Assembly: GCF_044704955.1 (NCBI RefSeq)
Contig: NC_091984.1
Location: forward strand, 204,166,001 to 204,230,000
DNA length: 64,000 nt
Reading direction: 5' to 3'
From: Pristiophorus japonicus
Taxonomy: Eukaryota
This document shows positions 49,456-55,548 of the stretch, in pieces. The notes beneath the pieces were generated by a model. It was not told the DNA's origin, did not search any database, and saw only the letters and a list, made by a program, of their open reading frames with translations. The first letter of the stretch is position 1. Every line of letters begins with the position of its first letter. The position numbers and the translations under genes are program-made.

Positions 49456-52357
49456 CATAGAAACATAGAAAATAGGTGCAGGAGTAGGCCATTCGGCCCT
49501 TTGAGCCTGCACCGCCATTCAATAAGATCATGGCTGATCATTCCTTCAGTGCCCCTTTCCTGCTTTCTCTCCATATCCTTTGATCCCCTTAACCATAAGG
49601 GCCATATCTAACTCCCTCTTGAATATATCCAATGAACTGGCATCAACGACTCTCTACGGCAGGGAATTCCACAGGTCAACAACCCTGAGTGAAGAAGTTT
49701 CTCCTCATCTCAGTCCTAAATGGCCTACCCATTATCCTAAGACTATGTCCCCTGGTTCTGGACTTCCCCAACATCGAGAACATTCTTCCCGCAGATAACC
49801 TTGGCTTGAGCAGTGGTGCAGCAGGGAGGGATTCAAATTCGTGGGGCATTGGAACAGGTTCTGGGGGAGGTGCGACCAGTACAAACCGGACGGTCTGCAC
49901 TTGGGCAGGAACGGAACCAATGTCCTAGGGGGAGTGTTTGCTAGTGCTGTTGGTGAGGAGTTAAACTAATATGGCAGGGGGATGGGAACCAATACAGGGA
50001 GACAGAGGGAAACAAAAAGGAGACAAAAATAAAAGACAGAAAAGGGATGAGTAAAAGTGGAGGGCAGAGAAACCAAAGGCAAGAAACAAAAAGGGCTACT
50101 GAATATAAAAGGGCTGCAGGAGGGGTAAAAACTAAAAATCATGGTTTAAAAACGAGGATGAAAACACTCTACCTAAATGCACGCAGCATTCGAAATAAAA
50201 TAAATGAGTTGACGGCACAAATCATTACAAATGGGTATGATTTGGTGGGCATTACAGAAACATGGTTGAAAGGTGGCCAAGACTGGGAATTAAACATACA
50301 GGGGTATCTGACGATTCAGAAAGATAGGCAAGAAGGGAAAGGAGGTGGGGTAGCTCTGTTAATAAAGGATGATATCAGGGCAGTTGTGAGGGATGATATT
50401 GGCTCCAATGAATAAAATGTTGAATCATTGTAGAAATAGTAAGGGGTAAAAGTCACTGGTCGGCGTAGTTTATAGGCCCCCAAATAATAACTTCATGGTG
50501 GGGCGGGCAATAATCCAGGGAATAATGGAGGCATGTGAAAAAGGAACGGCAGTAGTTATGGGAGATTTTTAACCTACATATCGATTGGTCAAATCAAATC
50601 GCAGGGGGTAGCCTGGAGGAGGAATTCATAGAATGCATACGGGATTGTTTCTTAGAACAGTATGTAACAGAGCCTACAAGGGAGCAAGCCATTTTGGATC
50701 TAGTCCTGTGTAACGAGACAGGAAAAATAAACGATCTCCTCGTAAAAGATCCTCTCGGAATGAGTGATCACAATATGGTTGAATTTGTAATACAGATTGA
50801 GGATGAGGAAGTTGTGTCAGAAACAAGCGTACTATGCTTAAACAAAGGGGACTACAGTTGGATGAGGGCAGAGTTGGCTAAAGTAGACTGGAAACAAGGA
50901 CTAAACGGTGGCACAATTGAGGAACAGTGGAGGACTTTTAAGGAGCTCTTTCATAATGCGCAACAAAAATATATTCCAGTGAAAAAGAAGGGCGGCAAGA
51001 GAAGAGATAACCAGCCGTGGATAACCAAGGAAATAAAGGAAAGTATCAAATCAAAGACCAATGCGTATAAGGTGGCCAAGGTTAGTGGGAAACTAGAGGA
51101 TTGGGAAAATTTTAAGCAACAGCAAAGAATGACTAAAAAAGCAATAAAGAAAGGGAAGATAGATTACGAAGGTAAACTTGCGCAAAACATAAAAACAGAT
51201 AGTAAAAGCTTTTCCAGAAATATAAAACGGAAAAGAGTGACTAAAGTAAATGTTGGTCCCTTAGAAGATGAAAAGGGGGATTTAATAATGGGAAATGTGG
51301 AAATGGCTGAGACCTTAAACAATTATTTTGCTTCCGTCTTCACAGTGGAAGACACAAAAACCATGCCAAAAATTGCTGGTCATAGGAATGTGGGAAGGGA
51401 GGACCTTGAGATGATCACTATCACTAGGGAGGTAGTGCTGGACAGACTAATGGGACTGAAGGTAGACAAGTCCCCTGGTCCTGATGAAATGCATCCCAGG
51501 ATATTAAAAGAGATGGCGGAAGTTATAGCAGATGCATTTGTTATAATCTACCAAAATTCTCTGGACTCTGGGGAGGTACCAGCGGATTGGAGAGCAGCTA
51601 ATGTAACGCCTCTGTTTAAAAAAGGGGGCAGGCAAAAGGCAGGTAACTATAGGCCGGTTAGTTTAACATCTGTAGTGGGGAAAATGCTTGAAACTATCAT
51701 TAAGGAAGAAATAGCGGGACATCTGGATAGGAATAGTGCAATCAAGCAGACGCAGCATGGATTCATGAAAGGGAAATCATGTTTAACTAACTTACTGGAA
51801 TTCTTTGAGGATATAACGAGCATGGTGGATAGAGGTGTACCGATGGATGTGGTGTATTTAGATTTCCAAAAGGCATTCGATAAGGTGCCACACAAAAGGT
51901 TACTGCAGAAGATAAAGGTACGCGGAGCCAGAGGAAATGTATTAGCATGGATAGAGATTTGGCTGGCGAACAGAAAGCAGAGAGTCGGGATAAATGGGTC
52001 CTTTTCCGGTTGGAAATCGGTGGTTAGTGGTGTGCCACAGGGATCAGTACTGGGACCACAACTGTTTACAATATACATAGATGACCTAGAAGAGGGGACA
52101 GAGTGTAGTGCAACAAAATTTGCAGATGACACTAAGATTAGTGGGAAAGCAGGTTGTGTAGAGGACACAGAGAGGCTGCAAGGAGATTTGGATAGGTTAA
52201 GCGAATGGGCTAAGGTTTGGCAGATGGAATACAATGTCGGAAAGTATGAGGTCATCCACCTTGGGGGAAAAAAAACAGTAAAAGGGAATATTATTTGAAT
52301 GGGGAGAAATTACAACATGCTGTGGTGCAGAGGGACCTGGGGGTCCTTGTGCATGAA

Positions 52358-53803
52358 ACTCTTTTTGGGAGTAAACAAAAAACATTAAACCGTGCCCCCC
52401 CCCGATCTGGGGGAAACACCAAACATTTACAGGCCCTTTTATTTTTTGGGGGGTTTTTTTTGGGCACAAAAACATATTTTTCTCCAAGTGCCCCCTATAA
52501 AAGGGGAGGGGGACACTAAAAGCACCGGCAATTAAAACAAATTAACTTAAAAACATAAAATCAAATTAAAATTTGGTTGCCAGGCGTGATGATGCACTCC
52601 AGTCCCTCCGGTGCCCACCTCTCGCGGAAGGCCGCGAGCGTACCGGTGGACACCGCGTGCTCCATCTCCAAGGACACCCTGGACCGGAAGAGAGGCAGGC
52701 AGTCTGGCTGAACGACCCCCTCGACTGCCCGCTGCCTGGACCGGCTGATGGCCCCCTTGGCCGTGCCCAGGAGCAGTCCTACGAGGAGGCCCTCGGACCT
52801 ACCCGCTCCCCTCCGCACAGGGTGCCCGAAGATCAGGAGTGTGGGACTGAAGTGCAGCCAGAATTTCAGGAGCAGCCCCTTTAAATAACAGAACAGGGGC
52901 TGCAACCTCATGCACTCAATAAAAACATGGAACACGGTCTCTTCCAGACCGCAGAAATTGCAGGCGGCCTGGGAGCCCGTGAACCGGCTTAAAAATTTAT
53001 TGCACGGCACTGCTCCGTGCATCACCCTCCAGGCCAAGTCCCCGACAAATAGTGGGAGGACCCCTGCGTAGAGTGCCCTCCATCGGGGACCCCCGCCTCC
53101 TCCAGACGGCAAGATGGTACGCCATGGCGTGTCCGGACGGCAGGCGAGGATGGCAAAGTTGTGAGTGTGCAGGAGCAGCCCGTACAGGAAACCCCTCCGT
53201 GCGGAACTGAAAAGCACGGAGGGGATTTCCCCGAGGCGGCTCAAGTTGTGAGGCGCCGGCCCCCGAGGGAGGTTCCGGGGTTTGGCGCCGATGAGGAATT
53301 CCGTCCGGACGGGGGTCAGTTCGGACGGGATCTCCCCACGTGCTTGAGCCTTCTCGATGCACCTAACGGAGTCGGGGCCCAGAGCTCTTTTTAGCGACTC
53401 GACGGCATCGGCCGCGTGGCGGACGTTGGCAGAATTTAGGCGCCGCGCCAGCGTGTCTGGCGCCATCCAGCCCGCTTCTCCGCCATCGAGCAGGTCCCTG
53501 ACCCTGGTCACCTCACCAGCCACAGCCCTCTCGTCCGACCGCCACCTAAAACCTTGGTCGTGGAGGTACGGATTCCCGAGCAGCGGCTCCTGCAGGACGG
53601 CCGCCACTCCAGCCGGTGGAGAGCTGCGCTTGGTGGAGACTTTGTTCCAGACCCTGATGAGTTCCTTGTAAAAGACAGGCAGCTCCCGGAGGGCGGTCCT
53701 GACGCCCCCCACACTCACAAACAGGAGCTGCGTGTCGTAGTTGAGGCCGTGCTGCTGGCGGAAGAAATACGTCGCCAGAGCACGCCACCTAGGAGGGGGC
53801 TTG
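52358..53803 (-). mobile_element. 5'-truncated Tx1-clade (L1 group) non-LTR retrotransposon
   Basis: Open frame from about 53800 to 52561: LPVFYKELIRVW, EPLLGNP, DLAWRVMHGAV and the CCHC motif CNFCGLEETVFHVFIEC; CpGs intact, so young; TSD CATGAA. Confidence 0.88.
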
Positions 53804-53818
53804 AAAAATTACATCAGT

Positions 53819-53887
53819 TGCGATGGCCAGGAATCGAACCCGGGTCAACTGCTTGGAAAGCAGCTATGCTGACCACTATACCACCAT
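53819..53887 (-). tRNA. tRNA-Gly(TCC) retrocopy lacking its first 3 nt, with a 3' trailer and T5; no CCA
   Basis: The minus strand reads ATGGTGGTATAGTGGTCAGCATAGCTGCTTTCCAAGCAGTTGACCCGGGTTCGATTCCTGGCCATCGCA then ACTGATGTAATTTTT; D, anticodon and T arms are intact. Confidence 0.9.
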
Positions 53888-55548
53888 GAATCCCAAAAGG
53901 TTAGTTTGCAGGTGCAGCAGGTAATCAGGAAGGCAAATGGAATGTTGGCCTTCATTGCGAGAGGGATGGAGTACAAAAGCAGGGAGGTGTTGCTGCAACT
54001 GTATAAGGTATTGGTAAGGCCGCACCTGGAGTACTGCGTGCAGTTTTGGTCACCTTACTTAAGGAAGGATATACTAGCTTTGGAAGGGGTACAGAGACGA
54101 TTCACTAGGCTGATTCCAGAAATGAGGGGGTTACCTTATGATAGATTGAGTAGACTGGGTCTTTACTCCTTGGAGTTCAGAAGGATGAGGGGTGATCTTA
54201 TAGAAACATTTAAAATCATGAAAGGGATGGACAAGATAGAGGCAGAGAGGTTGTTTCCATTGGTGGGGGAGACTAGAACTAGGGGGCACAGCCTCAAAAT
54301 ACGGAGGAGCCAATTTAAAACCGAGTTGAGAAATAATTTCTTCTCCCAGAGGGTTGTGAATCTGAGCTATCCTGCGATTCCTACTCTGACTAGCATGTGG
54401 CACTGGTCGCAATCCTGAGATTACTACTTTTGAGGTCCTACTTTTTAATTTAACTCCTAGCTCCCTAAATTCGTCTCATAAGACCTCATTCCATTTTTTA
54501 CCCATATCGTTGGTGCCTATATGCATCACGACAACTGGCTGTTCACCCTCCCTTTTCAGAATGTCCTGCATCCGCTCCGAGACATCCTTGACCCTTGCAC
54601 CAGGGAGGCAACATACCATCCTGGAGTCTCGGTTGTGCCAGCAGAAACGCCTATCTATTCCCATTACAATTGAATCCCCTATCACTATCGCTCTCCCATT
54701 CTTTTTCCTGCCCTCCTGTGCAGCAGAGCCAGCCACGTTGCCATGAACTTGGTTGCTGCTGCTCTCCCCTGATGAGTCATCCCCCTCAACAGTACCCAAA
54801 GCGGTGAATCTGTTTTGCAGGGGGATGACCGCAGGGGACCCCTGCACTACCTTCTCTGCACTGCTCTTCCTGTTGGTCTTCCATTTCCTATCTGGCTGTG
54901 GACCATTTACCTGTGGTAAGACCAGATGAGCTCTGAGACGGGTTGGGAGAAATAGGAGAGCAAGACATGAGTTCAGGGCTGGATAGAGGGGAGGTTTGGC
55001 TTAGTGGGGAGGATGCAGCAGAGACAGATAAATGGATGGTCTTAATCATGGTGATCAAGAAGTCCGAGAGCTCCTCGCACTAGTTGGGGTGCAGGAGAGA
55101 AGGATTTAAAGAGACATTGATAGTGGACAAAAGTAGTTGGGTTATCTTTGTTTTACAAGGATGATCCTGACATAGTGTGCGGTTTTGGCAGAGAAAGTGA
55201 GGCTTGATGTGTCCAGCCAGATCTGATGATGGATGGCGAAACCAGTTGTGCACAAGATAAGCTCAAGTTTGCACCCCTTGGACTTGCACAGCAACGATGG
55301 GGTCCATGAAGAGGAGTGATCGATATGGGAGAGATTAAAGGTTTTACTGGGGACAAAGGCATCAACATTGGAGGTGCAGCTGCAGAAGTATTGTGGCAAA
55401 TGGAAGGACACAGGCTAGACAGTTGGCTGCTTGAAAGTGCTATTGTAAGTGACTTGGTGGGGGAGGAAAGTTTTTCCCAGGGTGGTCACAGACGGAAATG
55501 GGGTTGGAAGGCAGTAGGGGGATGTGGGTGGTGAGGGATAAAAGAGGT

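Follow-up and report, generated by a model that had tools for sequence, protein, structure and literature searches.

A pre-tRNA-Gly/Tx1 chimera and small-RNA capture by a CR1-targeting Tx1 family in Pristiophorus japonicus

A 64,000-nucleotide (nt) stretch of the Pristiophorus japonicus genome (contig NC_091984.1, positions 204,166,001 to 204,230,000; “the window”) contains a retrocopy in which a pre-tRNA-Gly(TCC) is fused, at its RNA polymerase III (Pol III) terminator, to a 5′-truncated long interspersed element (LINE) of the Tx1 clade. The fusion is an independent chimeric retrocopy with a unique breakpoint. It belongs to a frequent class, formed by a LINE that inserts at one fixed site in another LINE, CR1, and that likely picks up, and sometimes chains, nascent tRNA, 5S, U6 and 7SL transcripts by jumping of its reverse transcriptase (RT); we put the probability that RT template jumping during target-primed reverse transcription made the window chimera at roughly 65%. 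The significance rests on the behaviour of the whole family; the window copy alone is one probably inert example, an ordinary member of an unusual class. An earlier reading of the window (the original prediction) recognised neither the fixed target of the family nor the family-wide frequency of capture.

A Tx1 family with a fixed CR1 target

Our searches covered the 5.9-Gb assembly. Among 29 other Tx1 copies examined, 28 of which were scored (one is without a 3′ end), 22 end on the same CR1 site and two more on the QRDLGVLVH codons of a diverged CR1, the rest being rearranged or misscored; with 22 of 28 flanks of one type, the family is a target-specific LINE, a description applied above 20% (PMC4494074). 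The exact 17-nt Tx1/CR1 3′ junction occurs 16,898 times, against none for the reversed control, and many of the occurrences lie in tandem stacks. A full-length copy (L095, 7.2 kb) has open reading frame (ORF) 1 and an APE-RT-zinc-finger ORF2, the latter broken in this copy, whose named full-length protein relatives are YTX2 and fish pol-like proteins (34-36% identity; PF03372, PF00078, PF13966); it is by this protein similarity that the family is assigned to the Tx1 clade. The protein match of highest identity to the Tx1 is from a stingray. Locus L126, used as a Tx1 reference, contained CR1 flank, and its coordinates were not used for Tx1 boundaries.

The 5′ junctions were sampled without selection for tRNA, as upstream target flank followed by non-CR1 bases. 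One flank variant gave 107 matches, of which 100 were listed and all 100 examined; a second gave 582, and here the examination covered the first 100 in positional order. Fifteen of these 200, three from the first set and 12 from the second, lacked Tx1 sequence and were dropped, leaving 185 insertions, with duplicated sites (L061-L064, L118/L119, L153-L155) counted as sites. Small-RNA heads are present in 24 of the 185 (13%, Wilson 95% interval 9-19%; 12/97 and 12/88 by set), a rate that is approximate, as the filter favours some base compositions, requires an intact flank and counts duplicated sites. Family-wide capture of small RNAs is frequent, at about one in eight sampled insertions, and the survey of Tx1 5′ ends for other Pol III RNAs that the original prediction had proposed returned both tRNA and 5S.

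The heads comprise 21 tRNAs (12/97, 9/88), one 5S and two U1, and none is U6; 20 were confirmed by Rfam or ARAGORN and four were read by eye. All head pieces are in sense orientation except one, an inverted Arg in L102, and most come with leader, trailer, intron and oligo-T; introns are retained in the Arg and Tyr heads. At the Tx1 join, the Pol III heads (n=22) have four or more T in 17 cases, TTAT in three and other sequence in two. Multi-part heads account for 11 of the 24, among them Val-Glu-Arg (L094), Lys-Arg (L111, L308), Val-Arg (L135) and Val-Leu (L152). Rfam returned nothing for the heads of L142, L158, L101, L238, L289 and L332; ARAGORN, run on Tx1 with relaxed settings, produced numerous spurious calls with long introns, which were ignored, and automated junction anchoring misplaced L073, L094, L102, L130, L134 and L322.

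A second search selected for T4 followed by the last 10 nt of Tx1 and gave 96 matches, of which the first 30 were examined. A Pol III-type RNA stands directly upstream in 26 of these (six 5S, several RNAs with introns; three of the 26 loci are tandem repeats of one event), and no one head type is dominant among the 30. A full 7SL copy with a 13-base-pair (bp) duplication was also found, and a U6 search, in which 14 loci of 48 matches were examined, yielded two chimeras with Tx1 (L359, L365) and three with CR1.

Several further observations concern these joins. At the joins of L045, L321 and L356 (also L135, L152, L332 and L350), TTAT takes the place of the TTTT seen in the gene or in sister copies; the A could be a non-templated addition to the RNA tail or to the cDNA, and for Val it may be encoded by the gene. 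Pre-tRNA-Gly or U6 heads also occur on CR1 3′ ends (L038, L046, L055, L362, L363, L364; the order in L364 is U6, tRNA-like piece, CR1), so RNA capture is not confined to Tx1. In L102, two intron-bearing tRNA-Arg copies stand head to head, one inverted, resembling twin priming on a captured RNA. Head sequence of unassigned type comprises 70 nt in L158 and the pieces flanking the one tRNA, Val, in L350; the head of L289 has a poly-A-ended piece in common with the U6 chimera L361.

The last ~14 nt of Tx1 (52358-52371 in the window, minus strand) include, in all family copies, 8 nt that repeat in inverted orientation the target flank across the nick (53889-53897 in the window). This end is a hot spot of truncation and RNA capture: 18 of the 185 insertions stop at about this point headless, and many RNA heads join there too. 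Pairing between the Tx1 3′ end and the target flank may possibly act in target recognition or early release. Elsewhere, full-length Tx1 copies and a full 7SL retrocopy alternate in a tandem stack in which every unit has a duplication to itself (L160/L161; G000:C8:199.123-199.143 Mb), and L197 is an Arg chimera in another CR1 subfamily, at a look-alike sequence ~9 nt from the homologous motif.

The copy in the window

The insert is enclosed by a 6-bp target-site duplication, CATGAA, at 52352-52357 and 53885-53890, and interrupts a CR1 ORF2 (Pfam RVT_1, E 1.4e-28) within the codons QRDLGVLVHE; uninterrupted versions of the site are present at L106 and L115. The first copy of the duplication, at the Tx1 3′ end, lies within the fixed target of the family (the CR1 DLGVLVH codons, from family comparison). 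On the minus strand, the insert begins at nt 4 of tRNA-Gly(TCC) (53819-53887; ARAGORN call; Rfam RF00005 model positions 4-67, 41.5 bits), which is without CCA, and continues through a 10-nt 3′ trailer (53818-53809) and five T (T5; 53808-53804) into a 5′-truncated Tx1 starting at 53803/53804. The Tx1 part consists of ORF2 sequence (52561-53803), delimited from ORFs, Pfam and protein matches, with ~413 open codons and a C-terminal zinc-finger region (zf-RVT, E 1.6e-5, below the Pfam cut-off), followed by a 3′ untranslated region (52358-52560; from alignment to other copies' 3′ ends) that ends at 52358; it is 95-97% identical to the closest copies listed. The original prediction had described this order, with about 410 codons, and the single bounding duplication that splits the CR1 RT, and both are borne out.

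One duplication surrounds both parts, and neither a Tx1 tail nor a target repeat stands between T5 and Tx1, which argues for a single insertion event; separate duplications of the tRNA and the Tx1, named beforehand as the observation that would speak against this, are absent. A sense RNA joined to a 5′-truncated LINE with intact 3′ end, within one duplication and at a unique breakpoint, has the make-up of U6/L1-type chimeric retrocopies, and the predicted fusion of a 3′-unprocessed pre-tRNA at its terminator to a truncated Tx1 in one event is upheld. The head, however, had been taken as 5′-processed, and this does not hold. The upstream copy of the duplication shares tRNA nt 4-6, a 3-nt microhomology between head and target; because the duplication overlaps these positions the tRNA is 5′-truncated, the cut lying inside it, and says nothing on 5′ processing, whereas sister inserts keep 5′ leaders of 3-7 nt (L034, L045; the Arg copies likewise have leaders). 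A duplication of 6 bp is at the short end for the family, in which the target match is 6 nt in 10/185 junctions and 14 nt in 80/185. The fifth T of T5 also fits the Tx1 base at the breakpoint; gene-type tRNA-Gly loci have T4 in 19/22 cases and T3 in 3/22.

The fusion is unique in the assembly: a 191-nt junction query has a full-length match at the window locus only, the other 39 of 40 scored matches being Tx1 alone. By the genome-wide junction search that the original prediction had suggested, this single copy marks a chimeric retrocopy. The tRNA end with its trailer occurs exactly twice, in the window copy and in L032, a decayed tRNA gene adjoining histone H2A-like sequence (recognised by eye), and 34 times at ≤2 mismatches. 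Among the first 30 of these 34 matches, 22 share a genomic 3′ flank (“gene-type”), one is not a tRNA and seven diverge at or near the T-tract: the window copy, three joined to Tx1 (L034, L041, L045), which break at different points, and three joined to CR1 3′ parts (L038, L046, L055). Of the remaining four, three lie at tRNA-Glu calls and the fourth has Gly(CCC) as the sole call in its vicinity. For the CR1-tailed tRNA-Gly chimeras, an automated search for flanking duplications gave nothing convincing. The search for a source tRNA gene with this trailer returned near matches, the exact form being confined to the decayed L032, and Tx1 stands at the terminator in 0/22 gene-type loci (in L057 a piece of Tx1 follows after another ~80 nt). 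The tRNA-Gly genes are clustered on C9, near histone-like sequence.

The head differs from the intact genes L053 and L054 at nt 1-3 and at tRNA positions 20, 32 and 62 (counted from nt 1). The three substitutions all lie outside the A and B boxes, which are without differences from the intact genes, so that an internal Pol III promoter of the kind found in short interspersed elements (SINEs) is present, as had been predicted. A nascent SINE, as proposed earlier, is not what we find: there is one copy instead of many, and the Pol III terminator separates the head from the LINE tail. The acceptor stem is incomplete as well, tRNA nt 1-3 having been replaced by target sequence. Being unique, with its terminator kept and its acceptor stem lost, the window copy does not qualify as a SINE or as a working tRNA gene; it is predicted to be inert, with Pol III transcription ending at T5 and a tRNA unable to form its acceptor stem, and it could at most be the source of a short Pol III transcript. 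For a SINE to arise from this class, the terminator would have to be lost, as it is in the TTAT joins. A Dewa-like association with tRNA arrays had also been considered; the target is the CR1 RT, on which 22 of the 28 scored Tx1 copies lie, and no Tx1 match was found in the Arg gene-array loci.

The upstream part of the host CR1 ORF2 (49957-52351, plus strand; endonuclease remnant and RT from Pfam Exo_endo_phos and RVT_1, and ORFs) is broken by frameshifts as well as by the insert, and the ORF resumes beyond it (53891-54365, plus strand). At ~54365 the CR1 is cut by antisense sequence resembling the 5′ part of another CR1 (54365-55000 of the window, with an ORF1-like frame at 54476-55000). Four DNA sequencing runs from one sample of the same organism, possibly the assembly's own source and not independent, contain 0.77 of the sampled words; no RNA run was listed among the data sets containing them, and runs from other organisms with small shares are left out of account.

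Template jumping and its rivals

The origin of LINE chimeras is disputed between RT jumping, known mostly in vitro, and prior RNA ligation, shown for human U6/L1. The fixed target of Tx1 makes such events countable, and chains in which U6 or 5S is joined at nucleotide 1 provide a direct test of the two. In the course of events that we favour, the Tx1 endonuclease would nick the CR1 site and complementary DNA (cDNA) would begin at the Tx1 3′ end; the RT would then run off a truncated Tx1 RNA and jump to the oligo-U 3′ end of a nascent pre-tRNA-Gly, with a terminal or non-templated A of the cDNA pairing with the 3′ U of the nuclear Pol III precursor. Repetition of such jumps would give chained heads. 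At the window copy, synthesis would have stopped or been resected at tRNA nt 4-7 and closed on the 3-nt microhomology. An R2 RT makes its jumps through overhangs of 1-2 nt, and the nucleotide that it adds is mostly A (PMC8857657), a preference which, carried over between clades, would select U-ended acceptors.

The heads span a short leader to the terminator and then stop, and the coincidence of their ends with presumed transcript boundaries argues for RNA templates. The chains were compared with the genomic loci of intron-bearing tRNA-Arg(TCG): of 30 taken, 27 are gene-type, and these have no other tRNA immediately upstream, their closest tRNA call being ~335 nt away on the downstream side. 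In the chimeras Arg follows Val, Lys or Glu by 7-70 nt (L135, L111, L308, L094), so that chained heads, where this could be tested, are not genomic neighbours. The Arg leader starts at the same A(-3) at terminal and internal positions in 6/8 independent copies. U6 is joined at nt 1 behind a pre-tRNA-Phe (L359); in L222 and L233 the RNA joined at nt 1 is 5S, preceded by another 5S or by part of a SINE. U6 is 5′-capped, and 5S and pre-tRNA begin with a triphosphate. The ligase RtcB needs a 2′,3′-cyclic phosphate and a 5′-OH, and a 3′-OH or 5′-triphosphate sharply reduces ligation (PMC6789731); joins at nt 1 of U6 and 5S behind other RNAs therefore involve ends that RtcB should not ligate, making serial template jumping the likelier origin. 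The Glu-Arg join of L094 has a particular form, in which the Glu trailer breaks off before its end, at 5 nt that match sequence upstream of the Arg gene; this suggests a homology-guided switch rather than an end join.

Several points weigh against jumping. For the window copy, a jump and a ligation give the same sequence, since T4 and a Tx1 fragment starting in U would also yield T5. A T stands just 5′ of the Tx1 breakpoint in 7/8 resolvable long-tail joins against ~0.4 expected (p ~0.01; one of the eight joins is from the U6 search, and L094 and L102 were left out); this bias is compatible with jumping but does not discriminate, and RNase cleavage after U before ligation fits it likewise. PMC8857657 suggests that jumping may lack a physiological need and that A overhangs of 3 nt are unproductive. 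Two heads are U1, a Pol II product, and 5/22 Pol III heads are without T4 at the join; the CR1-tailed tRNA-Gly and U6 chimeras make a host-side cause possible. We could not find an intact gene with the exact head and trailer, the closest, L053 and L054, differing at two trailer positions, in an assembly whose arrays may be collapsed.

The original prediction had left ligation, template switching and read-through side by side. The first of these survives as the principal rival, and we consider it unlikely: a ligase, RtcB or another, would link a cleaved Tx1 RNA to the 3′ end of the pre-tRNA, giving a chimera that would be inserted as one template. Human-cell U6/L1 chimeras form in just this way, by ligation before retrotransposition (PMC6789731), and the U6/Tx1 chimeras of this genome, the clean end-to-end joins, the U bias at the breakpoint, as expected of RNase cleavage, and the presence of such heads on unrelated CR1 would all be accounted for. 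Nascent pre-tRNA, however, ends in UUU-3′OH (10.1101/2022.06.07.494954), which makes it a poor donor for RtcB; U6 and 5S occur in the downstream position of joins, entering them at nt 1; and many tails retain only ~10 nt of Tx1 (26/30 loci in the short-tail search); no U6 is found among the 24 target-site heads, although U6 is the natural cyclic-phosphate substrate.

We regard capture at the level of DNA as very improbable; here a truncated Tx1 insertion would be left with an open 5′ end, which repair synthesis would fill in by copying a tRNA gene. Introns are retained, as it would predict, tRNA genes lie in large tandem arrays, the window copy has 5′ microhomology and one head (L102) is inverted; but heads stop at transcript boundaries, without gene flank past the terminator or far upstream of the leader, and 5S, 7SL and U6 are taken from nt 1 to terminator. 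The arrays themselves include U6 genes (L259-L288, 2.5-kb period, on C8) and Arg/Ser tRNA genes (L170-L198, 2.3-7-kb period).

Slightly less credible still is read-through, the third possibility raised at the outset, by which transcription ran through a tRNA gene and a Tx1 lying at its terminator and the joint transcript was retroposed, perhaps founding a SINE. It would explain the layout of head and LINE tail and the intact A and B boxes. Oligo-T terminates Pol III transcription, and T5 would end the transcript ahead of the tail. The junction is moreover unique, Tx1 is absent from the terminators of all 22 gene-type loci, the family targets CR1 and the other Gly chimeras break elsewhere; amplification of such a unit is refuted, which leaves a hidden source in collapsed arrays as a slight possibility. 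The least probable alternative, that a truncated Tx1 was there first and a tRNA retrocopy later landed at its 5′ end, gains something from reuse of the target and the commonness of tandem stacks and is largely refuted, as sequential insertions leave a Tx1 tail and target repeat between units (the tail in L065, L142, L144), which the window copy does not have.

Template jumping at the window copy is one matter; a broader proposal, which we make tentatively and would rate at a little short of evens, is that a vertebrate Tx1 confined to one LINE motif routinely carries out serial end-to-end jumps in vivo, that it selects nascent U-ended Pol III transcripts, that the fossil pre-tRNA, 5S, 7SL and U6 copies from its activity number about a thousand or more (extrapolating the 13% to the 16,898 or more junctions) and make up a natural small-RNA library and SINE nursery at one target, and that pairing between its 3′ end and the target flank triggers early jumps. 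The class provides the raw intermediates assumed in the birth of SINEs, most of which stop there since the terminator is carried along. A LINE that aims at the RT motif of another LINE can readily be tested, as can a vertebrate enzyme that is prone to jumping and whose target is known.

Comparison with known systems

SINEs consist of a tRNA head and a LINE tail, and Dewa is a Tx1 targeting tRNA-array spacers. The window copy shares the head-tail layout of the former and the Tx1-tRNA association of the latter, but its terminator is kept, it is single-copy and its target is CR1. In the literature that we searched, with most subscription journals, Repbase and the supplementary Tx1 target lists of PMC4494074 lying outside it, we found neither a CR1-targeting Tx1 nor frequent chains of sense pre-tRNA described, and PMC7245038 and PMC5035012 contributed nothing on a small-RNA-headed LINE class.

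The closest parallel is provided by mammalian U6/L1 chimeras (PMC4476161, PMC6789731), which likewise join a sense Pol III RNA with oligo-U to a 5′-truncated LINE within one duplication, in independent copies; here the cargo is mainly unprocessed pre-tRNA and 5S, about half of the heads are chains, the LINE is a site-specific Tx1 and ~13% of sampled insertions are affected. Human tRNA/L1 chimeras (PMC11838501) also combine a tRNA with an L1-type 3′ end and a duplication, but the 21 loci described are mostly antisense tRNA halves ascribed to twin priming, whereas the heads here are mostly whole sense precursors with leader, trailer and intron. The MGL chimeras of Magnaporthe (PMC2104539) hold three transcripts in one duplication, attributed to a double template jump; one tripartite case is set there against 33 bipartite ones, compared with 11 multi-part heads among 24 here, built of Pol III precursors. 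Tx1 (Tx1D), Tx1-Mar, Tx1-9_AMi and SINEU (PMC4494074) show a fixed transposon target, tandem stacking and recurrent 5′ addition of small RNA; the targets named in the part of that paper drawn on are piggyBac, Mariner, Harbinger, long terminal repeat elements, microsatellites and RNA genes, with CR1 RT not among them, and SINEU forms amplified families, which the heads here do not. Retrocopies of pre-tRNA are already known (cited in PMC4476161). Pre-tRNA retrocopies, rare tRNA/L1 and tripartite chimeras, and transposon-targeting Tx1 elements have thus each been known separately, and what appears new in the P. japonicus family is the target, the cargo and the rate.

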